Source of the DNA: Desulfobacterales bacterium
GTDB lineage: Bacteria; Desulfobacterota; Desulfobacteria; Desulfobacterales; G963662235
Length of the DNA: 64,000 nucleotides
NCBI GenBank assembly: GCA_963662235.1
Contig: OY759308.1
Location: 182,109-246,108 of the forward strand
Direction: 5' to 3'
Translations under genes and position numbers: made by a program
Part shown: piece after piece, positions 2,574 to 59,796 of the stretch
Position numbering within the stretch: position 1 is the first letter of the stretch
How the letters are laid out: the number at the start of each line of letters is the position of its first letter
Notes under the pieces: model-generated
The model's database searches: none
The model's input: the letters and a program-made list of their open reading frames with translations, nothing else
Told to the model about the DNA's origin: nothing

Positions 2574-2590
2574 GACCTTTGCACATAATG
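2574..2590 (-). repeat. Solo MITE terminal repeat (End-B type) directly after the stop codon of the upstream gene
   Basis: GACCTTTGCACATAATGTTTTTT starts one base after the TAA at 2571-2573. It is identical to the reverse complement of the End-B terminus of the full MITE copies (AAAAACATTATGTGCAAAGGTCTC). Confidence 0.6.
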
Positions 2591-2608
2591 TTTTTTATGA
2601 GTGTGATT

Positions 2609-3172: not shown

Positions 3173-3374
3173 AATATTTTATAATCTATCTTATTTTGAT
3201 TATCTAATAAATTTTTTAATCTTTTTATTTTTTATATACATCAAAAAAATTCAACTTTTTTTTTCATTTAAAAGCAATAAATTTATGTTTTAAAAAAATA
3301 AACTTTCATATTTTTTTAAACGAACTTATAAAAAATATTTTATTTATAATGTTAAATTTAAAATAAAGGCAAAA

Positions 3375-4778: not shown

Positions 4779-4798
4779 CCGTCTGTCCGTCCGTAGAG

Positions 4799-4854
4799 AC
4801 GCAAGATTTTGTGTCTCTACAAGATTTTGCATTTCTACAAGATTTTGCATTTCT
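4799..4854. repeat. Three tandem ~18-bp repeats downstream of gltX; the first unit is part of an 8-bp-stem hairpin
   Basis: ACGCAAGATTTTGTGTCTCT / ACAAGATTTTGCATTTCT / ACAAGATTTTGCATTTCT. GTAGAGAC (4793-4800) pairs with GTCTCTAC (4813-4820). Confidence 0.7.
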
Positions 4855-5118
4855 ACGGCATTTAATCAAACCAATATGAAATTACAATCTGGCGGTGTGC
4901 CCTACGTCATTTAAAAACTATGCACAAAAGTCTTAAAAAAATAATGTTGTTTTTATAGTTATTAATGTCTATTCTACAGGGTTCTTAAAGAAAGATTGGC
5001 AAAGGATATATTTTTATTAACAAAAAGAGAGCTTTAATAAGCTTTATTTAAAACTCTCGAAAACAGTTCAAAAAAGGACGCTTTTATTTTTAAGCGTTCA
5101 GGAAAAGAAAGAAGATTT

Positions 5119-6875: not shown

Positions 6876-7766
6876 GTGTTTTCAAGAAAACATCCATATC
6901 TATTTTTTATATTAGTTTTTATTTCTATAACCTCTTTTTCATCTGCTTTAATGTTGTTTTTAGGCAACAATAAAAAAAAAGAGTTTATTAATAGCTCCGA
7001 AACTGTCGGTATAATTGAAATTAAAGGCATTATCGAAGATTCTAAAGAAGTTTTGGAGCTATTAAAAGAACTTAGAGAAAATAACAAAATTAAATCTATA
7101 CTGTTGCGTATAGAATCTCCAGGAGGTGCAGTCGGACCTTCTCAAGAAATTTATCAAGAAGTCCTTAAAACCAAAAAAAAGAAAAAAGTTATAGTCTCAT
7201 TTGGAACTATTGGAACATCAGGTGCTTACTATATTGCCTCTGCAGCGGATGGTATTATGGCTGTTCCCGGAACTGTAACTGGCAGTATCGGTGTTTTAAT
7301 GGTGTATAATAATTTTCAAGAATTATTAAGCAAGATAGGTTTAAGCACTAAAGTTATAAAAAGCGTACAATATAAAGATATAGGCTCTCCAAATCGCCAA
7401 ATGAGTGACGCTGAAAAAAAAATCTTACAAGACTTTGTTGAAAAACTTCATACCCAATTTATAAACGATATCGCATACGGTCGTAATATGGAGCTTCTTA
7501 AAGTACAAGAACTCGCAGATGGTAGAATATATACAGGAGAAGAGGCACGTGACCTTAAATTGATAGACAAATTGGGTAACTATCAAGATGCTATTGAATG
7601 GGCAGGACGAGTTGCAGGTATAAAAGGTAAAATAGACACTTACTATCCTCAAAAGAATCAAAGCTTTATGGAAAAAATCCTTGATATGAAAAGCTTAAGT
7701 AATATCTCTAAAGTTATATTCCATCCAAGTAGTTATGCTGCTTTTCTTTATGCTCCATCTCTATAG
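6876..7766 (+). CDS. sppA: Signal peptide peptidase SppA, 36K type (peptidase S49)
   Basis: GTG start and an N-terminal TM helix. S49 signatures are ESPGGAVGPSQEIYQEV and GTSGAYYIASAADGIMAVPGTVTGSIGV. Confidence 0.85.
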   Translation: MFSRKHPYLFFILVFISITSFSSALMLFLGNNKKKEFINSSETVGIIEIKGIIEDSKEVLELLKELRENNKIKSILLRIESPGGAVGPSQEIYQEVLKTKKKKKVIVSFGTIGTSGAYYIASAADGIMAVPGTVTGSIGVLMVYNNFQELLSKIGLSTKVIKSVQYKDIGSPNRQMSDAEKKILQDFVEKLHTQFINDIAYGRNMELLKVQELADGRIYTGEEARDLKLIDKLGNYQDAIEWAGRVAGIKGKIDTYYPQKNQSFMEKILDMKSLSNISKVIFHPSSYAAFLYAPSL

Positions 7767-7784
7767 AGACCTTTGCACATAATG
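7767..7784 (-). repeat. Solo MITE terminal repeat (End-B type) filling the sppA / next-gene junction
   Basis: AGACCTTTGCACATAATG begins right after the sppA TAG (7764-7766). Its ATG (7782-7784) is the most plausible start of the next CDS. Confidence 0.6.
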
Positions 7785-8729
7785 TTTTTAGATAAAATTT
7801 TTAAAAAAAAGAAACAGAATGTCTTTCCCAAAAAACTTCAAAACAAGATAGTCGCTATTTTAAAAGAGAAGAAAAATTGTAAAAGCAAAAGCGAAGAGAG
7901 AAATTACTTAGAAAATGCCGAAGAGATTTTTTCTGAAATAAGGCTTGCGTTTGATAAAAACAAAAACTCTTTAACAAATAGCGTTATAAACAAAATAGTA
8001 TTAGGCGAGTTCGATAAAGCAGAAAACATTTTAAACAAATCGATTGAAGAAAACGAAAAAAAAACAAACATAAAATTATACGATTTCTATAGATTAGCAC
8101 TCCTTAAAAAATTGGCGTTAGAGTATAAACAAAGCGAGGAATATTATACAAAAGCGTTAAAAATTGAATCTTCTGATACACTTATCCTAAAATCTTATGC
8201 TAACTTATTACTCTCTTACAAAAAACCCAAAACAGCACTTAAATTTTTACTCAAAGCCCTTAAAGAAGAAAAAATAAGGTTCGGAAATAAAAGCCCAATT
8301 ATAGCCGAAAGTTATAGTAAAATAGCTTACGCTTACACACTATTAGAACAAAAAGAAAAAATCTTTTTTTACCTTAAAGAAGCTCTTATTATAAATGAAA
8401 ATACATTTGGAAAGTTTCATATAAAAACAGGCGACTCTTTAAAAGCTATCGCTATGTTTTTTGCAAAATCAGAAGAAGGGAAAAAAAATGCTATTAAGTA
8501 TTTTGAACAAGCCCTTGATATTTACGAAAAAACCTATGGAGAAAAAAATCTTGAAACTGCCTATCTTATGCTCCATTTTGCAAACTTGCTTTACAATTTA
8601 GAAGAAAAAAAAAGTGCTTTAAACTATTTTGAAAAAAGCGAAAAAGTTTTTACAATTTTTTTCGGCCCAGACGACCCTACAACAAAGTATGCTGTATTTA
8701 AAAAAGAGTTAATAGATATGAAAAAATAA
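7782..8729 (+). CDS. TPR repeat protein
   Basis: The ORF track starts at TTG 7773, inside the repeat; I prefer the ATG at 7782 (MFLDKIFKKKK...). Multiple TPR-like helical repeats are present (YSKIAYAYTLLEQKEKIFFYLKEALIINE, AIKYFEQALDIYEKTYGEKNLETA). Confidence 0.6.
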   Translation: MFLDKIFKKKKQNVFPKKLQNKIVAILKEKKNCKSKSEERNYLENAEEIFSEIRLAFDKNKNSLTNSVINKIVLGEFDKAENILNKSIEENEKKTNIKLYDFYRLALLKKLALEYKQSEEYYTKALKIESSDTLILKSYANLLLSYKKPKTALKFLLKALKEEKIRFGNKSPIIAESYSKIAYAYTLLEQKEKIFFYLKEALIINENTFGKFHIKTGDSLKAIAMFFAKSEEGKKNAIKYFEQALDIYEKTYGEKNLETAYLMLHFANLLYNLEEKKSALNYFEKSEKVFTIFFGPDDPTTKYAVFKKELIDMKK

Positions 8730-8839
8730 AAGTTCTATTTCCTTTTACATTTTCAAAACAAACTCTAAAACCACCATATTAAATGATTTAAACCCCTTTT
8801 TTTACCGTCTTAATTTCTTCATTTAACTTATAAACTATG

Positions 8840-8856
8840 TTATGTGCAAAGGTTTA
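8840..8856 (+). repeat. Solo MITE terminal repeat (End-B type), inverted relative to the one at 7767
   Basis: TTATGTGCAAAGGTTT matches the End-B terminus. Together with 7767-7784 it brackets the TPR gene with inverted copies of the same terminus. Confidence 0.5.
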
Positions 8857-11492: not shown

Positions 11493-11500
11493 AATTATAA

Positions 11501-11680
11501 GACCTTTGCACATAGCTCTATTTTTTAATATTTTTGCGGTGCAGTAGTATTTGCATACGTCAAACCCAAAAATATTATAAAAGAGAGCGTTAGTTTTTAG
11601 TGTCATATATATATTATGAACAAGTTATTATTCTACTAAAAAACTGATATTTTTGACAAAAAAATTATGTGCAAAGGTCT
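11501..11680 (+). mobile_element. MITE, subfamily 1, full copy (180 bp)
   Basis: Terminal inverted repeats are GACCTTTGCACATAGC (left) and TTATGTGCAAAGGTCT (right). The internal hairpin is TAATATTTTTG / CAAAAATATTA around the conserved loop GGTGCAGTAGTATTTGCATACGTCAAAC. It lies between clpB and tRNA-Thr. Confidence 0.85.
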
Positions 11681-11693
11681 ACTTCATAAAACA

Positions 11694-14592: not shown

Positions 14593-14789
14593 GAGAGCTT
14601 TGCACAAGCGCATTTTTTAAGAATTTAAAACAAACAATGTTTTTTATTCTTAAGATTTTTTTAAGGGTAAATGCCCTAAAAAGCTTATTATACATAGCTT
14701 GCCTTCTTTTGCCCTTTTTTTTGGTTCGATGTATAAACATACTACTTTACCAAAAAAAAGAACAAAGTCAGGCATTGTTCAAAGCTCTC
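14593..14789 (-). mobile_element. MITE, subfamily 2, full copy (197 bp)
   Basis: Termini are GAGAGCTTTGCACAAGCGC (left) and GCATTGTTCAAAGCTCTC (right). On the minus strand the hairpin is CTTTTTTTTGG / CCAAAAAAAAG around the loop TAAAGTAGTATGTTTATACATCGAA. The flanks read tTTAGg / TTAGGc, a possible 5-bp TSD. The copy sits exactly at the AT-rich / GC-richer compositional boundary. Confidence 0.8.
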
Positions 14790-20755: not shown

Positions 20756-20947
20756 TTTTTATTCCTTTTTTTATTGTTTTTTATAGCTTTCTGCTTTGTC
20801 TCTTCTTGCCACTTTTAAACCATCAAATCAACACACTCTTTTTTTAGTTTATTCGTTCAATTCAGCCTTTTTATCAATATAATCTTCCAAAAAATCCCAA
20901 TCTTGTAGAGGTTGTGATATAATAATTTCCCCAAATAAACCAAAAAA

Positions 20948-21063
20948 CCCAAAAAGCTCGCTCCCAAGCTCCTGCTTGGGAGCGTATATCTTCTGATAGT
21001 GTGCGTTTTTTGTTTTGTATGCGTTCCCAAGCAGGAGCTTGGGAACGAAGTTGGTAGGGACAA
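20948..21063 (+). repeat. REP-like repeat B (two GC-rich hairpins), direct repeat of 19190-19313
   Basis: Contains CGCTCCCAAGC-tcct-GCTTGGGAGCG and CGTTCCCAAGC-agga-GCTTGGGAACG. Confidence 0.8.
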
Positions 21064-21121
21064 GAACTTGAAAACAAAATTGGGAGAGGGCAAAAGCTTG
21101 GGAACGAAATTAATTATTTAT

Positions 21122-21586
21122 AATCGTAGGGGCGTATTGCCATACGCCCTCTCAACAATGCAATCACCATCAAAAACAATTGGTGCAATTGTTCGTGGAT
21201 TTTAATCTGCTGTAACAAAACAGATAAATCACTTGATACAAACACTTAGTCAAAAATTGTGGTAACGCAATTATTATGAGAGCTTTGCACATAGCTCTAT
21301 TTTGTAATATTTTTGTGGTGAAGTAGTATATTAATACGTCGAACCCAAAAATATTACAAAAGAGAGCGTCAGTCTTTATAGGGTTTTTAGGAGCTTTTGT
21401 GAAATTATCAAAAGTTGATATTTTATTAAAAACTACTATTTTTTCATAAAAAAACATTATGTGCAAAGCTCTCTATTATGAACATATCATACGCAATGAA
21501 AAAATGAGCATGGGCGTATAGCAATACGCCCCTACGAAAAAACAAATTGTACGGAAATGATTGAATATTACAGGAAGACCTTTAGG
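21122..21586 (+). pseudogene. Decayed RayT-type (REP-associated Y1) transposase C-terminal relic, copy 1, interrupted by a MITE
   Basis: Translates as VGAYCHTP...SPSKTIGAIVRGF*SAVTKQINHLIQTLSQKLW*RNYYE | MITE | HIIRNEK, with in-frame TAA stops. It is bounded by GGGCGTAT-tgcc-ATACGCCC-type hairpins. Confidence 0.7.
21278..21473 (+). mobile_element. MITE, subfamily 1, full copy (196 bp) with 6-bp TSD TATTAT
   Basis: GAGAGCTTTGCACATAGC...CATTATGTGCAAAGCTCTC is flanked by TATTAT at 21272-21277 and 21474-21479. The paralogous uninterrupted site at 47911-47926 reads GCAATTATTATGAACAT. Confidence 0.95.
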
Positions 21587-21960
21587 AAAGGACTCTTTTA
21601 TTGAAGCAATAAAATGTATTTTAAACCTAAGGCTTAAACCACAAAAACCCAAACCTAAAAGGAAAAATAAGTAAGGTGTCCCCAGAATTCTCAGAATGTC
21701 CCACACTTCAAAATAAGATACTTTAGTGTTGAGACCCTGATTCTCTTTCGCCTATCGTCGAGCCCTCTTAATCTTCCTTAAAAGGGAGAGACAAAAATTT
21801 CTTTAGTTTCAAAGCTATTAGGTTTTAATGTATAATTTTTTTCATTCTTTTATAAGTATGCACAAATCTACGCAGGCTATTGGTGACGCATTTCAACTTA
21901 GCATTCTTTTATTAAAAATCATATGCTTGACATTTAATGCATACCGTTATAGTTGTGACT

Positions 21961-22236
21961 ATGATAAAAAATTTTAAATGCAAGCATACACAAGCCCTTT
22001 ATGAAGGAAATAGCCCAAAGCAATTTAGAACTTTTCAGGCACAAGCAGAACGCAAGCTCCAAATGCTTGACAGTGCAGTCGAATTGCTTGATTTACTGTC
22101 TCCACCCGGTAATCGATTTGAAAAATTAGGAGGCGACAGACATGGGCAATACAGCATAAGAATCAATAAACAATGGCGTGTGTGCTTTTCGTGGTCTGAT
22201 GAACCATATAATGTGGAGATAACAGACTATCATTAG
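21961..22236 (+). CDS. higB: HigB-type toxin (RelE/ParE superfamily killer protein)
   Basis: MIKNFKCKHTQALYEGNSPKQF...PPGNRFEKLGGDRHGQYSIRINKQWRVCFSW...NVEITDYH is the typical HigB (COG3549) pattern. The ATG at 21961 is preferred. Confidence 0.85.
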   Translation: MIKNFKCKHTQALYEGNSPKQFRTFQAQAERKLQMLDSAVELLDLLSPPGNRFEKLGGDRHGQYSIRINKQWRVCFSWSDEPYNVEITDYH

Positions 22237-22244
22237 GAGAAACT

Positions 22245-22544
22245 ATGAATAATGTGCGAGCAATCCATCCAGGAGAAATAATCAAAGAAGAGTATTTAAA
22301 ACCATTAAATATGAGTGCTAATGCTTTGGCTATTGCTTTACGCGTGCCGGCACCTCGGATTAATGATGTGATAAGACAAAAGAGAGGAATTAGTGTTGAT
22401 ACTGCCCTTAGATTGGCCAGGTACTTCAACACCACCCCACAATTTTGGATGAATCTGCAAATAAGTTATGACATCAAAATGGCCAAACAAAATGTGCTAA
22501 AAATAGAAAATGAAATTATTCCTTTACAAGCTATAACTGCTTGA
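22245..22544 (+). CDS. higA: HigA-type antitoxin (XRE-family HTH)
   Basis: IHPGEIIKEEYLKPLNMSANALAIALRVPAPRINDVIRQKRGISVDTALRLARYFNTTPQFWMNLQ is canonical HigA/VapI. It starts 8 nt after higB. Confidence 0.9.
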   Translation: MNNVRAIHPGEIIKEEYLKPLNMSANALAIALRVPAPRINDVIRQKRGISVDTALRLARYFNTTPQFWMNLQISYDIKMAKQNVLKIENEIIPLQAITA

Positions 22545-24145: not shown

Positions 24146-24215
24146 GAGAGTTTTGCACAAACGCTAATTTTTTAAAAATTTTACGATAATTGAAACTTTG
24201 AATTTAAAAAATCAA
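24146..24215 (-). repeat. MITE subfamily-2 end fragment (End-B' only)
   Basis: GAGAGTTTTGCACAAACGCTAATTTTTTAAAAATTT...AACTTTGAA aligns with the reverse complement of the right end of the 42016-42211 copy (GAGACCTTTGAACAAACGCTAATTTTTAAAAAATTT...AACTTTGAA). Confidence 0.6.
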
Positions 24216-24314
24216 AGAATCATTTTTTTTAAAAAAACACTTAGATTTAAAGGCTTGTCCTCTTTTGCCCATTTTTCAAGTTCGAAGTATTAATATACAT
24301 CTTTACCCAGTCTA

Positions 24315-27300
24315 TCATAATTTTATAGAATATTTTTTGTCTATTTTGGAGATTTTAATCATTTCAAAATTGTCTATTTCAATAAATACATTACCTGACT
24401 TGTCGGTCAAAATAAGTTTGTAGGTGTTTGTGTTTTCATTATCAGACATTTTTTCAGTTATACAAAAATATTCTTCATTTTTTTTTGGATAGCTATAAAA
24501 TTTCATATTTGCAATTTTTAAGGGAAGAACTAACATATCGGTTTTTAAAAATTCAAATATTCCGCCTGTTTGGAACATTGCATCAACTATTACCACATTG
24601 CTTAAAAATTTTGGTTCTTTTTCATTCTTAAAAAACTCTTTATCCGATTTATCCATAATTTTACTGATTAAAAGTTTGCCGTCATAATGAGAAATTTCTT
24701 CTATTGTTTTAAAAAGCCCCTCCATAAAAAGGCGTTTTGGGTGGTAAATTAAAGATGCCAGATTATCATTAATTTGAAGTTTATTAAATTCAGGTAACGC
24801 TATTTTTTTAGAAGGAAGTTTATTGTTGTCAAAATAAAAAGAACCTTCATAGTGAAGTGTTTCGTTGAATATTTTTTTCTTTTGAAAAAACGAAGTTATT
24901 TTACACTTGCATAAATTATCGTTTAAAACTGCTTCAATCTCTATTTCTTTATCTTTTTCTTTTAAGATTTTAATGCCGTAAGGAATTGAAAAATCAGAGA
25001 CAGCAACAAGCTTTTTGTTTTTTGAATTTAAAAGATAGAAAGCTGCTTCTGCCATTGCCTCTATTCCTGTTGCTCCTAAAAAAATCGGGATATCATCTTT
25101 GCTGTGATCTTTTAGAAACAAGTCATAAGACAAAGAAAGCTTTCTTTTAAATTTTGCTTTGTTTTCATCTATAAAGCTTATTTTATCTAAAAATGGCATT
25201 AGTTTTTCTTGTGCAAGCAACCTGTTTATATCAAATTCATAATCTATCCCTGTAAAAACAGCTTCTATATTATCATCTAAAAGGTCGTCTAAAAAAAACT
25301 TTATTCCATCTTTTGGCTCTAAAAAACTTATTTTCTTTTCTTTGAGAACATATTCAACACTCGATTTTGTTGCCATTCCTATTTTGTTCCATGCTGTCCA
25401 GTCATAAATTTTATATTGTTTTGAAGGGTTTAATGAGGCTTCTTTTTGAACAATTTTACCAAGCATATCGTTTGCAGAAGTATAATCGGTTTGTCCTTCG
25501 TTTCCGAACTTTGCGGTTACAGAAGAAAAAGCGATGAAAAATCTATAATTAGCAAAACTCTTTAAAAGATTAAAAGCTCCCAAAATTTTGGTATCAAAAA
25601 CCTTCGAAAAAGAATCTAACTCTTTTTTTTCTATAAAATTACTCTCCTCTACTCCTGCCGCATGAATTATACCGTCTATGTTTTTTATATCGCTTGCAAA
25701 CTCATCTAACTGTTTTGCATCAATAACAGAAACAGGCTTGTAAATAGTGTCTATATTAAGGCTTCTTAACTCTTCTATATTTTTCTTAACTTCTCTTGCT
25801 CTTTTTATTTTTGCAGCTTGTCTGCTTGCTTCAACAGGTTTCATATTTGGGTTTTCTTGCATTACAAATGAGATAAGTTTGTCATCTTTTATGTTTTGCA
25901 ATTCTTTTTTTTCTTCTATATTACTTCTTCCCAGAATTATAAATTTTGTTTTATATTCTTTGCCAATGTTTTTTAATATCTCAAAGGTTATTCCACTTCC
26001 TCCTCCAGTTACTAAAATCGTATCATTTTGTTTTATAATATTTGTGTTTTCTTGGATTTTGCTTTCCTCAAGTTTTAATACAAATCTTTGTCCGTCTTTA
26101 TAAGCTACTTCAAGCTCATTTGTTTCTGTTTGAATTTCATTAATAAATAAATTGATTGTTTTTTCTACATTTGAGCTGTTTGCAAAATCTACCATTTTAC
26201 AAGAAGTGTTTTTAAATTCCTTATTAATGCTTTTAAGCATTCCGCTTATTCCAGCAAAAACAGGATTAATATCGATGTTTTTTTCAATATATGGAATAAC
26301 AACAGAGTTAAAAGCACAAGATGCTATGATGCCATCTTCTTTATTTATAGAATTTTGCAAAGTTTTGACGATGAGAAAAAAAGACTTTATTGCCTTTGAA
26401 AGCTTAATTGGATTTTGTGTTTTTTCAAAATAGTAATTGATGGGAGCAAAGTGTATAAAACCGTCTATATTGCTGTTTTTTATTTTTTGAAGTTCTTCTT
26501 GGATATTATTTTTATTTTCAAAAAGCTCAAAATTGTTTTTCCCTATTTCAATTATATTTGCATCTGTTTTCTTTGCAAACTCATCAGCAAAACCATAATT
26601 GTCAAAACTTACAAGCAATGTCTTATTCTTTAGTGTTTTTGTTTTGCCTTCTAATTTTTTTGTTACAGGCTTAATCAAAAATCTTTTTACATTCTTTTGC
26701 GTATCTGTTTGTGCTCTTTCATCTTCTTTTTGTTGTGTGTTGGCTATTTTCTCTTGTTTCTCTGAAGTCTCGTTTAAGATAAAATTGGTAAGTTTTTTTA
26801 TTGTGTTAAGTTCAACTAACTTTAAATCTTCTGGGACTTTAAAATTGAATTTTTCTGCAATTTCTCCAAAGATTTCAACTTGCTTAATTGAATCAATTCC
26901 CAAATCTGCTTCCATATCCAAATCATCTTCAAGCATATCAGTTTCATAGCCTGTTTGTTTTGCAATAATTTGCTTTATTGTTTCAATTTGATTTTCATCT
27001 GCTTTTAGAGTTGTTGTATCTTTTTTTTGCTCTACTTCTTTTGGTTCATTTGATGTTAGTGTTTGTGTTGATGAGGTTTTAGCTATTATAAAATCGGTTA
27101 GTTTTTTTATTGTGTTAAGTTCAACTAACTTTAAATCTTCTGGAACTTTAAAATTGAATTTTTCTGCAATTTCTCCAAAAATTTCAACTTGCTTAATTGA
27201 ATCAATTCCCAAATCTGCTTCCATATCCAAATCGTCTTCAAGCATATCAGTTTCATAACCTGTTTGCTTTGCAATAATTTGCTTTATTGTTTCAATTTGA

Positions 27301-30300
27301 TTTCCGCTATTTTCTGAAGTTGTTGCTATCTTATTTTCTTGCTTGGTTTCTTTTTGTGTATTTGTTTTTTCATCACAATCTTCTTTTGAAATTTTACTGC
27401 CGTGAGCTTCAACGCACAATGCGTTATTTGTTATTGTTAAAACAGGTCCTTGACTACCTGAAATATTTTGCAACCATTTATAATAGACATTGTTATTTTG
27501 GATGGTTCCATTTTCAAGTTTTTTTAACATTAGAAAAGCAAAGTGAGAGCCAAAGCCTGCTGCTGTGTGAATGCCATATTCAAAGTCATCATACAGTTTT
27601 TTGTTTAGGCATAAATCTTTAAAATTATCTTCAATATTGATTAAATTTGCAATTGGAGGAATTTGCCCTTTTTGCAAAGCCTTAACAAGAACAGCGTCTT
27701 CAATTCCTGCCCCCAATGTGTGTCCTGTGTAGCCTTTGGTGTTTGCAATGGCTATTTGAGGATAATGATTTGGAAAAGCTTTTCTTAATGCATTTATCTC
27801 AGCATCTGCAGAACCTCCACGCTTTGGAGTGTAGGTTTCATGGGACATAAAAATTAGTTTTTTTGTGTAATAATCTTTATTTAGGTTATGGTTTTTTTCC
27901 ACTCTCTTAACGAATTTCTCCATTTGCACAGCCAAATGATTTACATCTATGTTGAAAGTGTGAAATCCGCTATTGCCAAGATATGAACCAAGTATTTCTG
28001 CCTGACCATTTAATCCTCTTTTTCTAAGGCACTCTTCTTTTTCTATAACAAGCCCAACTGCTCCTGCTCCAAGTATTGTTCCGTTTCTTTCTGCATCAAA
28101 AGGCTTTGCGGCTTCTTCGACTTCTTTTTTGATAGTTGCAGCTCCAAGCGATAAAAATGCAGAGCCAACCCATTGATTTTGAATGGAAGAAGTTACATTG
28201 TCCCCCCCAATAATTATAACTCTTTCACATCTTCCACATCGTATCCAATCGTTTGCTACTCCTATTGCTTGAGTTGTTGAAGCACAAGCTCCATTTAAAA
28301 GAATATTCGGACCTTGTGCTTTTATAAACCTTGCAAGATGAGCAGAGCCTAAAGGGCACATATTTGCTGCAAAATTTCTGTCAAACTGATACGAAGGATA
28401 TTCTTTGTTTCTTTCTTTAACTTTAAAAAACCAATTTGTGATTTGCTTTTTAATATTACTATCTTTAACCGATTCCATTAAATGATAATAAATATTTTCA
28501 AACTCTTCATATGGCTCTACATAGAACTTGTGATAATAAAATCTGTTCATCTCACCCATAACAGTTTCATTATTTGGAAAAGCAGAGCTGACAATTACAC
28601 CTGTTTTACCTTGCATTTCTTTTGGAAGAGCAAAACCCTCTGGAATTTGTTTTCCTAAAGAGGTTTGTTTGTAGTTCATAACAAGAGGAATGTTTGCATC
28701 TTTTAATGCTTCAATTCCTGCAGCAACAGCAAGTGCCATTGCACTGTCATATTTAAACTCAACGCCATATTCGTCATTTAAATCAAAAAAACCTAATTGC
28801 CCTGCAAGTTGGATAACATCTTCTTGATTTTCTATTTCAACAAATCTGGCATTGCCATCGGCTTGTTTAAAAAGTCTGTTTATCTTCTTTTCTGTTATTT
28901 TCTTTTTGTCGTCTTCTGAAATTGGTTCTATGAAGTTTGTGCCGTTTAATATCTTTTCAAAATTATCACTTGAAAAAACCTTTCTTGCTTTTCCAGGAAG
29001 ACCTATTGAAACACCCGAGATGACAATTTTGCCATCATAAAAATTATATTTTTCCATAGAGGCAAGAGCATCTTCTTTTTTGTGCTGTATGAACTCTTTA
29101 TATAAAACTTTATCTAACACTTCTTGATTTTGTTTTTTAAAATCTTCAAAAGCATGGCTCTTGATATATTTTTCATCTTTATCAAAAGAGAGTGTTTCTT
29201 TTTTTTCTTCAAAAGGGGTTTTGTGTATTTTATCTATATAGTTTAAAAAGTTATCAAAGCTTTTTAACTGACCAACTTTAACATCAACTGCAGGTATAGA
29301 ATCGTAATATGCTATATTGATATCTTTGAGAAGGGTTCCAAGAAGTTTATTTGGTCCAATTTCTAAAAAAAGACTTTTTTGAGCTTCATAAACATATTCT
29401 ATGCTTTTTATAAATTCCACAGGTGAGGCTATTTGTTTTGAGAGCAATTCTTTTACTTTTTTTATATCATTTGGATATGGTTTCCCTGTGACATTTGATA
29501 TGATTTTTGAATAATTTGCCGTGTTACTAAAAATATAATCATCAAGGTGTTGCTTCATTTTAAAAGCAGCATCATCAAAAAGATTAGAGTGAAATGCACC
29601 AGAGAGTTTAAGTTTTATAAAAGGTTTTTTTATCGATTTTAAAAAGTTGCAAAATTTGTCAATATTTTCTTTAGTTCCTGATATTGCTGTTTGTTTTTTA
29701 CTGTTTTTGTTTGCGATAAAAACTTCGATTGAGCTTTGTCTTATTAGTTTTTCGCTTTGTCTTTCATCAACAAACAGAACCATTATTTTGCCTTGTGTTT
29801 TGCTTGTGCACTCTTTCATTAAATCTGCTCGTTTTAAAACAAGAGACATAGAAGATTCAAAATCAAGTATGCCATTACAAAAAAGTGCTGTGTATTCTCC
29901 TATGCTATGACCTACAAAATAGTTTGGAATAATATTTTTAGTTTGCCTTAAATGCTCATAAATAGAAGCACTTGATAAAAATATTGAAGGTTGGGTATTT
30001 TCGGTAAGATTTATTTCATTATTGTCAGAAAACATTAAATCTAAAAGAGAATATCCTCGTGATTTTTTAAAAATCTCTTCGCCTTTATCCATTGTTGTGC
30101 GAATCAAAGGATATTCTTTATATAATTCTTGCATCATATAGGCAGATTGAGCTCCTTGCCCAGACAGTAAAATAATGATGTTAGATTTTGTGTGGTTTTG
30201 GTTTTTTGCAATATAAGGCTCGGTTGAAACTGCTTTTTTGGTTTTATCAAAATCTATTGTTTTTTGAAGAATAGGAGAAAAGATTTCTTCTTCTTGATTG

Positions 30301-33300
30301 TCTTTTTGCTCATTTTTTTTGCTTAGAAAGGCAGACATACTTCCTAAAACCATATGTCCGTGATTGCCACCAATTCCATTCACATTGCTTGCTAAATAAA
30401 AATTGTCTTCTATCTTTTTTAAATTTGGATTTGCTTTTAAAATAGAATTTTTTTCTACGATGGAGTTCTCTTTCGAATATGCAAAGTTTGGCAAAATAGC
30501 TTTATTCTTTGTCATAAGAAGTAATTTGTTTAGAACAACAGCAGGATTGGCCGCTTTAAAATATGCAAATTGTGATTTTGTGTTGCCGAAAAAAATGTCG
30601 TTTGGAAAACTTGTTTCAATTGCTTGTTTTTCGACTAAATCAAATAATGGGTTAGATACTCCAAAAACATCAATATATTTTATCTCATTTTTTTTTATAT
30701 TTATTTTTTCGTAACAAGTTTCAATTGCTTTGCTATATGCTTCTTCAGAAGGAGATAAAAGATGCTTTGGGACACTTGAAGAAAAAGAGATACCTTTTAT
30801 TTCACCAATGATATCAAGATTGTTTTCGCAAGCTTTTTTATAAGTTGTTAAAATTTGAACAGCAGCACCTTCTCCCATAACATATCCTTCTGCTCTTTTA
30901 TCAAAAAAATAGTTGTCGTGCGTACTCAAAAGAGAAAGCCTTTTAAAAGCTATAATAACAGCAGGATATAAATTTGCATCAACTCCTCCTGTTATTGCAA
31001 AATCGAGCTGTTTTGTTTTAAGGTTTTCCATGGCTGTTTCAAAAGCAAAGGATGAAGAAGCACAAGAAGCATCTATAACAAAATTTTTGCCATTACAGTT
31101 AAAAAAATTGGCAACTCTTCCAGATACAAGATTTGATAAAAGACCTGTTGTTGTGTCTTCGGTGGTTGGTGAAAATCTTTTTTTAAGATTTGTAAGAAGC
31201 TTGTCTGCTATAATGTTTTTGTTTTCGGCATCAAATTCTTTTATAAATTTTTCTATAAGAGGAAGCCTAACTCTTAAAATATTTTCCGATTGATGTGTCC
31301 CTGATATTGTTCCAAATATAACTCCAATATTATTTCCATATCCAAAAAAATCTTCCATTTTTGCTTGGGATATTGCCTCAGATGTTGCATCAAGTGCAAA
31401 TTTTTGTGCATTGTCTATAAACTTTGCAGTAAATGGTGGAATTTTATATTTTGTGTTATTAAATTTATAATCGTCTATAATTCCTGCTTTGATATTTGGA
31501 ATGTGATATCCAGAAAGTTTATCTTCTTTTGCATAATAGTCGTTATGGAATTTGGAAGAAGGCATTGTATCTGATATTGATGTTTTGCCACTTTTTAGCT
31601 TTTCCCAAAAATCAGAAGAATTTTTCACATTTGGTAAAAGAGTTCCCATTCCAACAGCAACAATTCTGTCTTCATTAAAATCGTAAGATAAATCATTAAA
31701 AATTTGTCTTCTTGTTTTTTTATAAGCATCGGTAAATTCTTCAATAATTGAATGATAGTTAATTCCACCAAAACCATATGAGCTTATTGCAGATGCAAGA
31801 GGCATGTTTTTATTCCATTCTTTTGCTTCTTCAATAATATAGAAGGGAGAATCTTGTAAGTTATGGCTTCTGCTTAATTCTTCAAAAAGACCATTTGGAG
31901 GGAGTGTTTTATTTTTTATTGCAAGGATTGCTTTTATAAGCCCTGCCATGCCAGCCCCACCAAGAAGATGCCCTATTTGTGACTTTATTGAACTTATTCC
32001 GATTTTATTATTTGATTGATTGTAAACAGCTTTAAGGGCTTCAATTTCTGTTATATCTCCCATAATTGTTGAAGTTCCGTGTGCTTCAATAAAATCAATA
32101 TTGTTTAAATCAAAATCGTCTCTTAAATTTTTGATACATCGTTTAAGAGCAAGAACTTGCCCATTTTGGTTTGGTGCAGCTATGGCTTTCCCTTTTCCAT
32201 CAGAGCTTGCACCTAATGCTTTTATTAAAGCATAAATTTTATCTTTGTCTCTTATGGCATCTTTTGCCCTTTTTAAGATAACAACTCCAGCTCCTTCTCC
32301 CATCACAAAACCACTTGCTCTTTTGTCAAAGGGGTATGAGCCTATGTTTGATAATGCTCCAAGTTTGCAAAAACCAACAAAGGGCTCTGGAGCAAGATGA
32401 GAATTGACTCCTCCAATAATTGCCAAATCGCTTTTCCCCGATAAGAGTTCTTTTATTCCACAATCTAAAGCTGCAAAGCTTGTTGCACAAGCTGCATCAA
32501 CTGTGTAGTTTATGCCTTCTGCTCCTAAGTGATGAGCAATTCTGCTTGCTTCTATGTTTAGTGCAACAGTATGAACAGCTTCATATTTTGAACCATCTGA
32601 AAATTTTTCTTTTAAATAGTTTTTCAATTCTTTCTTTTTTTCATCACTTAAAGATTGAAACTCGTCTATTTGGTCTAAATAATACAAGATTTCAGGATAG
32701 CTATATTTGAAATGCAAATTGTTGTTTGTTTCATTGCCAAGGCAGCTTGCAACGATAACAGAGGTGTTTTTTCTTAATTTTTTTTTAAGTTTTGTGTCTT
32801 TTTCAATTATCTTTGCATCAAGTGCTGCTTGGAGGGCTGCTTCTAAAACTAATTGTTGGCTTCTTGAAAGATTTTTTCCTTTATTTTCTTCATAGCCATA
32901 TTTTTTCTCGTCAAATGTAAAAACATTATCTTTTATTACGCCTGCAAGAGAGGTGTAGGTTTTGTCTTCTTTTTTTTTATCTTCATCATAAAAAAGGTGA
33001 AAGTTGCAAAAACGCTCACTGTTATCGTGATTTATATCTATAATTGAATATTTTTTATTTACTATGTTGTTCCAAAAGGCTTCTTTGTCTTTTGCATCTG
33101 GATAAATGCACCCAATTCCAACTATTGCTATTTCATCATTTATGATATTTTTTTCATTCGTAAGAGCTTCTAACGAATTTAGATTTTTGTGAAGGGATTC
33201 TTTGTTGTCAAAATAGTTTTGATGAAGCTCTTTTATAGGCACTGTATAATCTGAAAAAACAACAGAATCGCCTGCCATAAAGTTGCCTTTTTCAAATTGT

Positions 33301-35213
33301 TCTTTTTCGTTAAATTGCTTTAATTCTTTAAAAACATTGTTTTCAAAAATAGGCTGAAATCCTTTTGAGGCAATAAGTAGTGCCCCAATGTTGTCTTGTT
33401 CAAATTCTTTTTTCCTTTTGCCCAAGTCTATGTTGTTTCTGATTCTGTCGTTTTCTCTTTTTAATATATTTTGAGTAAAAGGTGTTTTTATAACTCTTGA
33501 GGGCAAACCAACAGAACTTCCGATTAAAGAAGTTTCTTTGTTTTCTAAAACAACTTTTTGATAAACTGGTTTTATGGCAAGAGATTCTAATATCTCTTTG
33601 GTTGCAAGATAGGCTGTGCCAACTTGAATTCCTATTTTAAAACCTTTTTCATAAAGAAAGGCACTCATTCCGCTTATGAAAAAAGAGGCTGATTTGGTAG
33701 ATATTCCTCCTGCAAAAATAAGAGTGCTTCTGTTAGGGGTTATTTGATTTTCTAAAATTGTTTCAATTGCAAGCTCCCATAGTGTGAAGCTGCTTAATGC
33801 TCCAATATGACCGCCTGCTTCTTTTCCTTCAAATATGAAATTTGTACACTCGTTTTTTACAGCATTTTTCAAAAATGATGGAGTTGGTGTGTGTAGATAG
33901 GTTTTAGTTCCAAGCTCTTCTAATTTTTTTACATTGGCAGGAGAGCCTGCTGCAAAGAGAGCAAAGGGGACTTTGTGTTTTTTTATTATTTTGATATGGC
34001 TTTCTAAAGTTGGATTTAAGGCTTCGATTCCTATCATACCTGCACCAAAAGATTTTAACTTTTCTTCGTTTTTACCTTCTGTAATAATTTTATCTGCCAA
34101 ATTTGAAGGCAAGTTTCCTAATGCAAAGAAAGGCAAAGCTCCATTTTCAAAAACAGATAAGGCAAAATTTGCATTATCGCTTATATTTGCCATAGGTCCT
34201 TGAATGAGTGGGTATTTTGTTTTGTGCTCTTTTGCCAGCGTGCTATTTTCTTGCAACGGGTCAAAATCGTCTATTAGTGCTAATTTTTCGCAAGTTTCGC
34301 TAAATAGATAATGGACTATATCTTTTAGCTTTTTTGATTTTTTTACAAAATGTTTTGCAAAAACAGCATCTTGTCCAAGATAGAAAAGGGATTGCAGGGG
34401 TTCTGTGGAATTATCATTTAATTTTTTTATATTTGATTTTATAACTTCATAAAAAGCATTTTTTGCATCAGGATTGCCAATTAGTTCTAATTCTTTGAGT
34501 TTAAGCTCTTTTGTGATTTTTGTTCCGGGCTTTGAAAAAAATCTGTAATTATACCCAAGGTTTTGTCCTAAAACTTCTGTGTTGTTGTCTTCTAAGTTTT
34601 CGATTAATTTTTTAAAATTTGAAGATAAAGGAGCTTCGTCTGCAAGAAAAAATTGAGAATCTAAAACAATTCCGCTTGCACCACTTGCAAAAATTCCTGC
34701 TGTTGTATGAATGCCAACTCCGCCTTGAACAAAAATTGGAAGTTTTGTTTTTTCTAAATAAGTTTGCATTAGCACAAAAGAAGAAAGACCAGCGCCCCTT
34801 CCTCCTGCCTCACTCCCTTTTATGATAAGAGCGTTTGGAGATATTTTGCCTAACTTTTTTTCAATTTCAATATCAATGGTTTCAATGAAAAAAGGATTTT
34901 TTATGTTTGCATCATCAAATCGCTCGATATCCTCTAATGAATCATAATAAAAAATTATGGCATCTAAATTTCTTATATTTTTTTCTTTTAAAAAATTTAT
35001 AACCTCTTTTTCTTTAAAATTTAATCTTAATCCAAAAAGATGATTTGCGTTTGAAAGCTTTGTAATTGTTTCTGTAATTTCATCACTATCTAAAAACTCA
35101 CAATCTAAAACAGGCAGTAAACCTGCATCATCAATGGCTCTAAAATATTTTTCATCAAAACAAAATGATAAACAAATTGCAGGTAATTTTGAATTTATCA
35201 CTCTTTTAAACAT
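24315..35213 (-). CDS. Single-polypeptide PUFA-synthase-like (secondary-lipid) type I FAS/PKS megasynthase: ER'-ER-KS-KS*(His-less)-AT-KS-ACP-ACP-KR-DH
   Basis: 3632 aa. Positions below were counted on the translation.
- NMO/PfaD-like domains: aa ~1-310 (IKGSEAGGRG, VQGGVGI) and aa ~333-560 (YPLIQGPMA, FEGKEAGGH, FAGGIS).
- KS1, aa ~693-1160: DAACATS (C909), EAHGTST, SQIGHLLG.
- KS2, aa ~1183-1625: DASCASS (C1384), but DVFGVSN and KSQFAYF replace the two His motifs.
- AT, aa ~1678-1965: GQGAQ, GHSIGE, GAFHS.
- KS3, aa ~2062-2565: GACAST, SHETYTP, GYTGHTLG.
- ACPs: serines in DLGIDSI at S2672 and S2775.
- KR, aa ~3063-3285: VTGGGSGIT, YTSAN.
- PKS-type DH, aa ~3340-3632: LKDHSKDDIPIFLG, DAMFQ. 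Confidence 0.85.
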   Translation of the reverse strand: MFKRVINSKLPAICLSFCFDEKYFRAIDDAGLLPVLDCEFLDSDEITETITKLSNANHLFGLRLNFKEKEVINFLKEKNIRNLDAIIFYYDSLEDIERFDDANIKNPFFIETIDIEIEKKLGKISPNALIIKGSEAGGRGAGLSSFVLMQTYLEKTKLPIFVQGGVGIHTTAGIFASGASGIVLDSQFFLADEAPLSSNFKKLIENLEDNNTEVLGQNLGYNYRFFSKPGTKITKELKLKELELIGNPDAKNAFYEVIKSNIKKLNDNSTEPLQSLFYLGQDAVFAKHFVKKSKKLKDIVHYLFSETCEKLALIDDFDPLQENSTLAKEHKTKYPLIQGPMANISDNANFALSVFENGALPFFALGNLPSNLADKIITEGKNEEKLKSFGAGMIGIEALNPTLESHIKIIKKHKVPFALFAAGSPANVKKLEELGTKTYLHTPTPSFLKNAVKNECTNFIFEGKEAGGHIGALSSFTLWELAIETILENQITPNRSTLIFAGGISTKSASFFISGMSAFLYEKGFKIGIQVGTAYLATKEILESLAIKPVYQKVVLENKETSLIGSSVGLPSRVIKTPFTQNILKRENDRIRNNIDLGKRKKEFEQDNIGALLIASKGFQPIFENNVFKELKQFNEKEQFEKGNFMAGDSVVFSDYTVPIKELHQNYFDNKESLHKNLNSLEALTNEKNIINDEIAIVGIGCIYPDAKDKEAFWNNIVNKKYSIIDINHDNSERFCNFHLFYDEDKKKEDKTYTSLAGVIKDNVFTFDEKKYGYEENKGKNLSRSQQLVLEAALQAALDAKIIEKDTKLKKKLRKNTSVIVASCLGNETNNNLHFKYSYPEILYYLDQIDEFQSLSDEKKKELKNYLKEKFSDGSKYEAVHTVALNIEASRIAHHLGAEGINYTVDAACATSFAALDCGIKELLSGKSDLAIIGGVNSHLAPEPFVGFCKLGALSNIGSYPFDKRASGFVMGEGAGVVILKRAKDAIRDKDKIYALIKALGASSDGKGKAIAAPNQNGQVLALKRCIKNLRDDFDLNNIDFIEAHGTSTIMGDITEIEALKAVYNQSNNKIGISSIKSQIGHLLGGAGMAGLIKAILAIKNKTLPPNGLFEELSRSHNLQDSPFYIIEEAKEWNKNMPLASAISSYGFGGINYHSIIEEFTDAYKKTRRQIFNDLSYDFNEDRIVAVGMGTLLPNVKNSSDFWEKLKSGKTSISDTMPSSKFHNDYYAKEDKLSGYHIPNIKAGIIDDYKFNNTKYKIPPFTAKFIDNAQKFALDATSEAISQAKMEDFFGYGNNIGVIFGTISGTHQSENILRVRLPLIEKFIKEFDAENKNIIADKLLTNLKKRFSPTTEDTTTGLLSNLVSGRVANFFNCNGKNFVIDASCASSSFAFETAMENLKTKQLDFAITGGVDANLYPAVIIAFKRLSLLSTHDNYFFDKRAEGYVMGEGAAVQILTTYKKACENNLDIIGEIKGISFSSSVPKHLLSPSEEAYSKAIETCYEKINIKKNEIKYIDVFGVSNPLFDLVEKQAIETSFPNDIFFGNTKSQFAYFKAANPAVVLNKLLLMTKNKAILPNFAYSKENSIVEKNSILKANPNLKKIEDNFYLASNVNGIGGNHGHMVLGSMSAFLSKKNEQKDNQEEEIFSPILQKTIDFDKTKKAVSTEPYIAKNQNHTKSNIIILLSGQGAQSAYMMQELYKEYPLIRTTMDKGEEIFKKSRGYSLLDLMFSDNNEINLTENTQPSIFLSSASIYEHLRQTKNIIPNYFVGHSIGEYTALFCNGILDFESSMSLVLKRADLMKECTSKTQGKIMVLFVDERQSEKLIRQSSIEVFIANKNSKKQTAISGTKENIDKFCNFLKSIKKPFIKLKLSGAFHSNLFDDAAFKMKQHLDDYIFSNTANYSKIISNVTGKPYPNDIKKVKELLSKQIASPVEFIKSIEYVYEAQKSLFLEIGPNKLLGTLLKDINIAYYDSIPAVDVKVGQLKSFDNFLNYIDKIHKTPFEEKKETLSFDKDEKYIKSHAFEDFKKQNQEVLDKVLYKEFIQHKKEDALASMEKYNFYDGKIVISGVSIGLPGKARKVFSSDNFEKILNGTNFIEPISEDDKKKITEKKINRLFKQADGNARFVEIENQEDVIQLAGQLGFFDLNDEYGVEFKYDSAMALAVAAGIEALKDANIPLVMNYKQTSLGKQIPEGFALPKEMQGKTGVIVSSAFPNNETVMGEMNRFYYHKFYVEPYEEFENIYYHLMESVKDSNIKKQITNWFFKVKERNKEYPSYQFDRNFAANMCPLGSAHLARFIKAQGPNILLNGACASTTQAIGVANDWIRCGRCERVIIIGGDNVTSSIQNQWVGSAFLSLGAATIKKEVEEAAKPFDAERNGTILGAGAVGLVIEKEECLRKRGLNGQAEILGSYLGNSGFHTFNIDVNHLAVQMEKFVKRVEKNHNLNKDYYTKKLIFMSHETYTPKRGGSADAEINALRKAFPNHYPQIAIANTKGYTGHTLGAGIEDAVLVKALQKGQIPPIANLINIEDNFKDLCLNKKLYDDFEYGIHTAAGFGSHFAFLMLKKLENGTIQNNNVYYKWLQNISGSQGPVLTITNNALCVEAHGSKISKEDCDEKTNTQKETKQENKIATTSENSGNQIETIKQIIAKQTGYETDMLEDDLDMEADLGIDSIKQVEIFGEIAEKFNFKVPEDLKLVELNTIKKLTDFIIAKTSSTQTLTSNEPKEVEQKKDTTTLKADENQIETIKQIIAKQTGYETDMLEDDLDMEADLGIDSIKQVEIFGEIAEKFNFKVPEDLKLVELNTIKKLTNFILNETSEKQEKIANTQQKEDERAQTDTQKNVKRFLIKPVTKKLEGKTKTLKNKTLLVSFDNYGFADEFAKKTDANIIEIGKNNFELFENKNNIQEELQKIKNSNIDGFIHFAPINYYFEKTQNPIKLSKAIKSFFLIVKTLQNSINKEDGIIASCAFNSVVIPYIEKNIDINPVFAGISGMLKSINKEFKNTSCKMVDFANSSNVEKTINLFINEIQTETNELEVAYKDGQRFVLKLEESKIQENTNIIKQNDTILVTGGGSGITFEILKNIGKEYKTKFIILGRSNIEEKKELQNIKDDKLISFVMQENPNMKPVEASRQAAKIKRAREVKKNIEELRSLNIDTIYKPVSVIDAKQLDEFASDIKNIDGIIHAAGVEESNFIEKKELDSFSKVFDTKILGAFNLLKSFANYRFFIAFSSVTAKFGNEGQTDYTSANDMLGKIVQKEASLNPSKQYKIYDWTAWNKIGMATKSSVEYVLKEKKISFLEPKDGIKFFLDDLLDDNIEAVFTGIDYEFDINRLLAQEKLMPFLDKISFIDENKAKFKRKLSLSYDLFLKDHSKDDIPIFLGATGIEAMAEAAFYLLNSKNKKLVAVSDFSIPYGIKILKEKDKEIEIEAVLNDNLCKCKITSFFQKKKIFNETLHYEGSFYFDNNKLPSKKIALPEFNKLQINDNLASLIYHPKRLFMEGLFKTIEEISHYDGKLLISKIMDKSDKEFFKNEKEPKFLSNVVIVDAMFQTGGIFEFLKTDMLVLPLKIANMKFYSYPKKNEEYFCITEKMSDNENTNTYKLILTDKSGNVFIEIDNFEMIKISKIDKKYSIKL
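26787..27303. repeat. Tandem duplication (309-bp period) encoding the two ACP domains
   Basis: 26787-26995 and 27096-27303 are nearly identical at the nucleotide level. The linkers between them differ. Confidence 0.9.
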
Positions 35214-35980: not shown

Positions 35981-36047
35981 CCAAGTATAGAAAAAACCGT
36001 GCAACAGTAAATAATAATTGAACCAATATCAGGTAATAAATAAACAA

Positions 36048-42015: not shown

Positions 42016-42211
42016 GAGACCTTTGAACAATGTCATTTTTGTTCAATTTGAGGGTAAAGTAGTATATTAATACTTCAAGCCCGAAAATCGGGCAAAACAT
42101 GGCAAGCCTTTTAATATAAGCTTTTTAAAAGAAAAAGTAATGTTTTGTTTTTAAAGTTCAAAGTTCAAATTTAACAAATTTTTTAAAAATTAGCGTTTGT
42201 TCAAAGGTCTC
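42016..42211 (+). mobile_element. MITE, subfamily 2, full copy (196 bp) at a rearrangement junction (no TSD)
   Basis: GAGACCTTTGAACAATG...GCGTTTGTTCAAAGGTCTC. The left flank is transposase coding sequence (aaatct). The right flank is the recombinase 3' end (atactc). Confidence 0.8.
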
Positions 42212-53706: not shown

Positions 53707-53855
53707 GAGACCTTTGCACATAATATTTTTTACAAAAAAATTTACAAAAGCCTATAAAGACTTACGCTCTCTTTTACTTTTGTTTTGGGTTCGACGTATA
53801 AAAATACTACTTCACCACAAAACAAAAGCAAAATAAAGCTATGTGCAAAGGTCTC
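53707..53855 (-). mobile_element. MITE, subfamily 1, short full copy (149 bp) with 6-bp TSD ACTATT
   Basis: GAGACCTTTGCACATAAT...CTATGTGCAAAGGTCTC is flanked by ACTATT at 53701-06 and 53856-61. The hairpin stem is CTTTTGTTTTG / CAAAACAAAAG. Confidence 0.9.
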
Positions 53856-55953: not shown

Positions 55954-56068
55954 GAGAACTTTGCACGAACGCATTGTTTTTTCTTCTTAAGAATTTTCTT
56001 AAGGGAAAATACCATAGAAAGCTTTCTATTTATAATTCGCCTTCTTTTGCCCTCTTTTTAGATTCAAG
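55954..56068 (-). repeat. MITE subfamily-2 half copy (End-B' half), abutting the next MITE
   Basis: GAGAACTTTGCACGAACGCATTGTTTTTT...GCCTTCTTTTGCCCTC aligns with 14593-14712 and stops where the copy at 56069 begins. Confidence 0.7.
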
Positions 56069-56264
56069 AAGACCTTTGCACATAGCTCTATTTTGCTTTT
56101 GTTTTGTGGTGAAGTAGTATTTTTATACGTCGAACCCAAAACAAAAGTAAAAGAGAGCGTCAGTCTTTATAAAAATTTTATAGCTTTGGGCAAAATTGCC
56201 AAAAGTTAATGTTTTACTAAAAACTACTATTTTCTTCATAAAAAATATTATGTGCAAAGGTCTC
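56069..56264 (+). mobile_element. MITE, subfamily 1, full copy (196 bp)
   Basis: AAGACCTTTGCACATAGCTC...ATTATGTGCAAAGGTCTC. The hairpin stem is CTTTTGTTTTG / CAAAACAAAAG with the conserved loop GGTGAAGTAGTATTTTTATACGTCGAACC. Confidence 0.9.
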
Positions 56265-56275
56265 ACAAAGATATT

Positions 56276-56402
56276 CTAAGTGCAAAGATCTTAAAAACTT
56301 ATAAATACTAATGTTCTTTTTTACAAGATTTTTGGCTTTAATATATAAAAATATTACTAAAACACAAAAATCTTACAAAATTTAAACTGTGTGCAAAGGC
56401 CT
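56276..56402 (-). repeat. Degenerate MITE material: one solo terminus (56276-56292) plus an End-A+hairpin partial copy (to 56402)
   Basis: Both CTAAGTGCAAAGATCTT and CTGTGTGCAAAGGCCT read in the same direction. On the minus strand the partial copy shows GGCCTTTGCACACAG...AAGATTTTTG-loop-CAAAAATCTT. Confidence 0.55.
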
Positions 56403-56418
56403 TAAGTAGCATCTCTTT

Positions 56419-59588: not shown

Positions 59589-59796
59589 GAGAGCTTTGCA
59601 CATAGCTCTATTTTGTAATATTTTTGTGGTGAAGTAGTATATTAATACGTCGAACCCAAAAATATTACAAAAGAGAGCGTCAGTCTTTATAAAGCTTTAG
59701 AGGTTTTTCGCCTTTCGGCGAACCCCCCTTAATCCCCCTTTAAAGGGGAAAATGGTAAAAAAAATCTCACGAAAAAACATTATGTGCAAAGCTCTC
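59589..59796 (+). mobile_element. MITE, subfamily 1, full copy (208 bp) with 6-bp TSD GTTATT
   Basis: GAGAGCTTTGCACATAGC...CATTATGTGCAAAGCTCTC is flanked by GTTATT at 59583-88 and 59797-802. A further solo End-B (CATTATGTGCAAAAGTCTT) follows at ~59817-59838. Confidence 0.95.

Follow-up and report, generated by a model that had tools for sequence, protein, structure and literature searches.

The ERIC elements of enterobacteria are MITEs that lie in spacers, are co-transcribed, and form a long RNA helix affecting the mRNA. In Correia elements, a long helix mediates RNase III binding or cutting or a change in mRNA stability, and these elements can also carry promoters and IHF sites (PMC2649163). 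For bcr1, which is transcribed, the RNA structure is upheld by compensatory base-pair changes (PMC3184786).

Here, we describe a ~196-bp MITE family in a window (the whole 64-kb stretch of DNA analyzed, ~31% GC) from an uncultured bacterium. Like bcr1 of the Bacillus cereus group, a MITE-like element of ~155 bp, it is a small noncoding dispersed element with target duplications, and like the Correia elements of Neisseria (CREE) and ERIC, its copies are placed in short intergenic spacers. Adjoining one end of the element, named End-A, lies an irregular hairpin with substitutions that are correlated between the two arms of its stem.

A MITE family with inverted repeats and target duplications

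The family is bounded by a 15-bp terminal inverted repeat (TIR), GAGA(G/C)CTTTGCACA(T/A), for which a scan of the window returned 24 matches at ≤3 mismatches against 2 expected and which is perfect at 21278/21473 and 59589/59796. Both ends are present in seven copies of 149-208 bp and one diverged copy of 126 bp within the 64 kb. Truncated copies and solo ends also occur, and the density here is ~1 copy per 6 kb. Three of the seven full copies are flanked by perfect 6-bp target duplications (TATTAT, ACTATT, and GTTATT), for which we estimate a chance match at ~6e-4 per copy, and a fourth copy is flanked by the 4-bp duplication TTAG. The TIRs and the flanking 6-bp duplications therefore identify a TIR/TSD-type MITE family. 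Terminal inverted repeats and target duplication are accompanied by small multicopy units without coding capacity, in which all reading frames are interrupted or not conserved between copies. Two subfamilies have the TIRs and the hairpin module in common and little else that can be aligned. Eight copies keep the internal hairpin adjoining End-A, and the occurrence of near-identical hairpin pairs implies recent spread. The copies and their parts are located as follows.

21278..21473, + strand: full MITE copy, 196 bp, End-A to End-B
21278..21292, + strand: End-A TIR, GAGAGCTTTGCACAT
21459..21473, - strand: End-B TIR, perfect complement of End-A
21272-21277 and 21474-21479: TATTAT target duplication of the 21278 copy
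21294..21367, + strand: complete internal hairpin of the 21278 copy, from folding and RNAalifold
21320..21342, + strand: conserved core of the 21278 copy
59604..59683, + strand: hairpin of copy 59589-59796, identical to the 21278 hairpin; target duplication GTTATT
56084..56163, + strand: hairpin of copy 56069-56264; B-type stem CTTTTGTTTTG/CAAAACAAAAG
53761..53840, - strand: hairpin of short copy 53707-53855; B-type stem; target duplication ACTATT
11514..11593, + strand: hairpin of copy 11499-11681, between the clpB stop codon and tRNA-Thr
56308..56388, - strand: hairpin of the diverged 126-bp copy (~56278-56403)
14696..14774, - strand: hairpin of subfamily-2 copy 14593-14789; T8/A8 stem, no bulge
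42031..42108, + strand: hairpin of subfamily-2 copy 42016-42211; register-shifted stem, tandem G·A
24264..24318, - strand: half hairpin (core and 3' arm) of truncated subfamily-2 copy 24146-24318

The 21278 copy sits within a degenerate C-terminal remnant of an IS200-like (Y1) transposase (W(stop)RNYY/EHIIRNE), copy 42016-42211 truncates a Y1_Tnp ORF, and End-A of copy 14593-14789 abuts the stop codon of the upstream gene. The two degenerate IS200-like (Y1_Tnp) genes, 41704-42051 (+) and ~20900-21560 (+), are each disrupted by a MITE rather than flanking one. The former is cut after ...GRYKS and has a DnaA_C-type HTH fragment nearby (40605-40949); the latter is split at NYY/EHIIRNE and carries in-frame TAA stops in place of expected Q/K codons. 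These Y1 genes were rejected as a source of mobilization, since the MITE splits both of them and the family possesses TIRs and target duplications. No transposase with the TIRs of the MITE was found among the genes of the 64-kb window. An AGTAGT motif shared at End-B was dropped from consideration because subfamily 2 does not conserve it, and an apparently precise deletion of the hairpin at 62814 is probably a chance match within the end of a flagellar gene.

Several copies are clustered or nested. Between the genes for the POR gamma-subunit and 3-hydroxyacyl-CoA dehydrogenase, three copies occupy 55954-56403: copy 56069-56264 interrupts a subfamily-2 copy (55954-...) within its hairpin core, and beside them lies the diverged copy of 126 bp. 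The adjacent copies 59400-59554 and 59589-59796 have in common a distinct central module, GC-rich and containing two small hairpins (TTCGCC-TTTC-GGCGAA and CCCCCTTTAAAGGGG), and truncation of the former copy falls precisely at the 3' foot of its End-A hairpin. In its End-B half, the family seems to be built of modules and to be rich in hairpins as well. At 7766-8856, two facing End-B-type TIRs flank a 318-aa TPR-repeat ORF (7773-8729) and lack a clear target duplication; this pair may represent either two solo ends or a composite element with cargo.

Genes in the window include gltX, rpsA, clpB, tRNA-Thr, and those for succinyl-CoA synthetase, pyruvate:ferredoxin oxidoreductase, and flagellar functions. 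A giant 3,632-aa ORF at 24315-35213 (-), with its stop codon abutted by a truncated MITE, stands back to back with a 1,432-aa ORF at 36018-40316 (+), for which no Pfam match was found at E ≤ 1e-5. The segment 42415-47579 (+), in which genes for a PD-(D/E)XK nuclease and a DUF6602 protein come after that of a STAND NTPase (NB-ARC/NACHT, 893 aa), may be a defense island, and toxin-antitoxin pairs occur near it (BrnT/CopG, 41064-41622; HigB/HTH, 21937-22544).

Exact-pattern scans of genome, metagenome, and viral contig collections returned no MITE copy, nor did blastn against plasmids, and a six-frame concatenated translation of three copies had no match in a set of 5.8 billion proteins. The closest ClpB relatives show 66% identity (1.5-Mb genomes), followed by Cloacimonadota at ~61%; in one of the 66% relatives, the 22 kb read (42% GC) held no MITE copy. 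The 2.3-kb Logan contig SRR34447573_87 from the same organism (window ~2572-4880) ends inside a MITE TIR. MITE repeats break short-read assemblies of this genome.

Architecture of the hairpin and covariation of its stem

The preliminary description of this DNA had placed a hairpin at 21304-21357, and these coordinates are exact: the stretch reads GTAATATTTTTG-TGGTGAAGTAGTATATTAATACGTCGAACC-CAAAAATATTAC. Every stem that it tabulated is present in the window as written. The 10-12-bp stem that it proposed is indeed paired, but its length was understated, the helix comprising 5+16+3 bp (21294-21319 with 21343-21367). In the 21278 copy, an outer helix of 5 bp (21294-21298 with 21363-21367) and an A·G mismatch are followed by a main helix of 16 bp (21300-21315 with 21346-21361), a bulged T at 21316, and GGT/ACC (21317-21319 with 21343-21345). 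The outer stem is thus a 24-bp helix with a 1x1 mismatch and a bulged T, and the irregular hairpin measures ~75 nt overall. What had been taken for an unpaired loop consists instead of GGU/ACC, a 6x5 noncanonical core with GAAGTA (21320-21325) opposite GTCGA (21338-21342), a 4-bp helix GTAT/ATAC (GUAU/AUAC; 21326-21329 with 21334-21337), and a variable apical tetraloop (21330-21333) that reads ATTA, TTTT, GTTT, or TTGC between copies. Nor is this ~30-nt segment invariant as claimed: it is exact in four copies, in two tetraloop variants, and the others differ at 3-10 positions. The stem of the 42016 copy, which had appeared weak, pairs with its 5' arm displaced by one register, at a folding energy of -24.6 kcal/mol.

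Compared with shuffled sequences, the hairpins fold with z-scores of -4.8 to -7.6, that of 42016 having z = -2.95. The loop pattern has five matches in the window at ≤3 mismatches, with 0 expected. A covariance model built from the copies found the eight full hairpins and the half copy 24264-24318, and no other match in the window.

Both the sequence and the structure of the core are conserved, with ~86% identity between subfamilies as counted by hand from the copy sequences. It can be read as the stacked noncanonical pairs G·A, A·G, A·C, G·U, and U·G, a reading based on core pairing in the diverged copy, on variation at core pair 33/47, and on the register-shifted fold of 42016. In the diverged copy (56308-56388), the core has turned Watson-Crick paired at four of its five positions, the fifth (32/48) remaining G·T. 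Across the copies, pair 33/47 is found as U·G, U-A, A-U, and one U·U, with A-U in the half hairpin 24264-24318 and U·G or U-A in other copies. Over its full length, the diverged hairpin is unlike the A-type at 28% of positions (hand count on the alignment), yet it has kept 27/27 pairs.

RNAalifold, suggested as a check in the preliminary description, recovered the hairpin structure unaided. In an alignment of the seven distinct hairpins, two rows of which were registered by hand, 95.8% of 189 pair cells are canonical or G·U. This value fell to 83.7% upon shuffling within columns (0/500 shuffles reached the real value) and to 37-61% when the arms were slid by 1-3 columns. Both sides have changed with pairing kept at 11/27 pairs (1-5 in controls). 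A MAFFT-only alignment of five copies with no hand editing gave 99.3% paired cells versus 37-65% in slid controls and contained nine double-change pairs.

A/T low complexity is as pronounced in the slid controls as in the real stems. We also applied a null model in which the stem substitutions of each lineage were reassigned at random among stem positions with the matching original base, keeping base composition and substitution spectrum. Broken pairs numbered 8 with 30.8 expected, and double-kept pairs 17 with 3.6 expected (P<5e-5); lineages B, D, and C were each significant alone. This null being rejected, the substitutions are therefore pair-correlated, as judged from seven distinct sequences of ~6 lineages in one 64-kb window by tests that are not tree-aware. 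Compensatory changes, as expected of a conserved RNA structure, thus exceed a null that keeps composition. The slid controls and the model preserving composition and spectrum both speak to the concern that A/T runs might account for the covariation, and the latter also to the GC-to-AT bias of this genome.

Strand, setting, and possible roles of the hairpin

In 7/7 distinct copies, the strand running from End-A to End-B folds better than its complement, by 1.0-12.1 kcal/mol under RNA and 1.0-4.7 kcal/mol under DNA parameters, and it holds 13 G·U cells versus 2 A·C. G·T is the least harmful mismatch in DNA hairpins too, and part of the G·U excess could stem from C-to-T bias linked to transcription. 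For 8/10 copies, a proportion not significant alone, the neighboring genes are read in the End-A to End-B sense. Along the window, five copies point in the plus and five in the minus direction, and thus a replication-direction bias of the kind seen with single-strand transposons is not apparent. Five co-oriented copies start 0-28 nt past, or overlap, the upstream stop codon, and one occupies almost the whole spacer from clpB to tRNA-Thr; overall, most copies lie 0-28 nt past a stop codon or in short intergenic spacers, in sense orientation. Each of these lines is weak alone; the pattern of strand and position suits read-through mRNA better than replication-linked single-strand DNA.

We favor, with a probability of roughly 40%, the reading that the hairpin acts as part of putative co-transcribed RNA, after the manner of Correia, ERIC, and bcr1 elements. 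It is encoded immediately inward of End-A in a TIR/TSD-type MITE, and because most copies lie in sense orientation after stop codons or in short spacers, transcripts entering from End-A would contain it. The RNA is predicted to fold into the 24-bp helix, with the conserved noncanonical core atop and a small capped helix. The 24-bp helix might serve as a substrate for double-strand-specific processing of the RNase III type or as a protective or insulating structure, and we infer that RNase III or another factor acts on the hairpin. By way of the co-transcribed element, the hairpin may tune the stability or processing of the flanking mRNA, and it might have the same role in the leader of the parent insertion sequence. 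If the hairpin acts in RNA, it represents a mobile cis-regulatory module in a poorly known, MITE-dense lineage, with copies often situated just after stop codons in operons, and transposon spread would once again be seen to shape mRNA processing. More elaborate versions strike us as quite improbable: the core might be a docking site for a protein or RNase, the MITE spreading a post-transcriptional module into operon spacers and uniting unrelated genes (clpB, suc, POR, and fatty-acid genes) in one regulon, or a TIR/TSD transposon might in addition need a strand-specific DNA hairpin. We know of no description of the latter hybrid for DDE elements.

The preliminary description had concluded that structure, not sequence, is under selection. 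Preservation of stem structure over sequence stands, given the double changes at 11 of 27 pairs; the step from there to selection is tentative. All covariation lies between element lineages and not between orthologous insertions, so that the constraint acts on lineages still spreading and tolerated, which argues for an element-level rather than a host role. It is documented that perfect stems can arise and persist by template switching, through compensatory changes of several bases (PMC8794818), and a palindrome devoid of any selected function could accordingly stay complementary through intrastrand template switching or quasi-palindrome correction, mimicking compensatory change. The A-type and B-type stems fit this explanation, differing by one contiguous 6-bp block (columns 14-19 with 60-65, five adjacent pairs swapped) that could be a single templated event; outside it, the 81-nt modules differ only at two tetraloop positions. 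In the diverged copy, some double changes are C-to-T and G-to-A on opposite arms, and such GC-to-AT double changes are favored by the mutation bias of the genome; the clearer bias-independent swaps are few, namely 17/62, 18/61, 24/55, and 33/47 plus the block. However, copying from arm to arm would erase both the G·U wobbles, which last in most lineages with 13 G·U against 2 A·C, and the noncomplementary core, which is kept between paired segments. The four swaps at 17/62, 18/61, 24/55, and 33/47 are isolated single-pair changes in separate lineages, and the core of the diverged copy became paired via point changes leaving a wobble and a bulge, not via a copied arm. We infer that pairing is kept by selection rather than by templated mutation, whose sufficiency we regard as doubtful. 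With a block swap alongside isolated pair swaps, the family is a compact test case for distinguishing the two.

It is unlikely, in our view, that the hairpin is a DNA-level cis element, extruded from the top strand as a hairpin or cruciform near End-A, with a transposase or host architectural protein reading the core and the stem being structural only. Selection for mobility would leave covariation between propagating lineages, no internal segment other than the core is conserved between subfamilies, and the top strand is favored under DNA parameters in 7/7 copies. Moreover, copy 24146 breaks inside the hairpin, copy 59400 at its 3' foot, and copy 56069 is inserted in the hairpin core of 55954; these truncations and the nested insertion suggest that the palindrome is fragile as DNA. 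Set against this, a cut-and-paste DDE mechanism, which to our knowledge does not need hairpins, is indicated by the perfect 15-bp TIRs and the 6-bp duplications, the motif is present at one end only, and orientation follows transcription in 8/10 copies. Less likely again is a leftover of the 5' leader of the parent insertion sequence, where the hairpin may, for example, have limited transposase read-through or controlled the mRNA, now carried as baggage by the MITE and conserved through recent derivation from diverged autonomous elements. Its position directly inside one TIR, where the leaders of insertion sequences sit, and the recent spread implied by near-identical hairpin pairs agree with this origin, as does an AGGAG-N5-GTG mini-ORF 3' of the hairpin in the 21278 copy, on whose strand the G·U asymmetry falls. 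The codons of this mini-ORF show three synonymous and three conservative changes relative to a B-type copy; however, start and frame are lost in that copy, and a transposase remnant is a weak interpretation because the mini-ORF is not kept in B-type copies. In addition, no transposase with the ends of the MITE occurs within the window, and baggage would not retain 27/27 pairs at 28% divergence, as hairpin 56308-56388 does. Least probable, in our judgment, is that the core is a double-stranded DNA signal, either an outward promoter (TTG-N15/16-TAGTAT) or a protein-binding site, spread upstream of genes, with the inverted repeat secondary. TTG (columns 11-13) and TAGTAT (33-38) are nearly invariant and 15-16 nt apart, a gene starts 13-450 nt downstream of most co-oriented copies, and Correia elements create promoters and bind IHF (PMC2649163). 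A consensus scan, however, made no promoter call here, each hexamer matching a general consensus at only 3-4/6 positions, and this explanation leaves the covariation of 11 pairs and the pairing at 33/47 unaccounted for.

Comparison with known RNA classes and mobile elements

No Rfam family reached its gathering threshold on the hairpin, and only tRNA-Thr passed in the window; the match that the preliminary description had proposed to seek with the loop was likewise not found. Relaxed Rfam matches on the hairpin are generic models of miRNA precursors at 15-20 bits, against thresholds of 54-211. An intrinsic terminator was rejected because a U-tract is absent, the letters next to the hairpin reading AAAAGAGAGC downstream on the top strand and AAAATAGAGC downstream on the bottom one, and a terminator scan found just a weak TIR-proximal site in A-type ends. 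By eye, several structured motifs could also be dismissed: a tRNA-like fold or reverse-strand T-arm, for want of a T-stem; a k-turn, given 4 extra nt on the nonbulged strand; the sarcin-ricin AGUA/GAA motif, given the partner strand GUC, and not GAC/GAA, beside the helix; and hammerhead or hairpin ribozymes, given that there is no three-way junction and the shared GUAUAUUA falls in the variable tetraloop.

Elements that act as single-stranded DNA resemble the hairpin in part. PATEs (derived from IS200/IS605) and REP/REPIN elements (Y1/HUH) likewise have an imperfect, bulged hairpin whose structure is recognized on one DNA strand. However, they are without TIRs and target duplications and have subterminal hairpins at both ends, and identity with them was rejected because the MITE has TIRs and 6-bp duplications, with a hairpin at one end only. 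The attC sites of integrons share the conservation of structure over sequence, extrahelical bases, and a strand-specific hairpin. Unlike attC sites, the MITE is not accompanied by a cassette array or an integrase, has TIRs and a target duplication as its borders, and shows no R''/R' boxes (RYYYAAC/GTTRRRY) by eye.

Among elements known as RNA, bcr1 has a 5-bp duplication and a cruciform-like fold of the whole element, belongs to another host lineage, and has no sequence relationship to the MITE described here, in which, by contrast, a single asymmetric hairpin with a conserved noncanonical core stands beside one TIR in elements that may be transcribed. In CREE, with a consensus that we take to comprise 26-bp TIRs and a TA duplication, the helix is made by the TIRs themselves, whereas the family described here combines 15-bp TIRs and a 6-bp duplication with an internal conserved helix on which RNase III may act. 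Identity with Correia elements was rejected, as TIR sequence and length and the size of the duplication differ.
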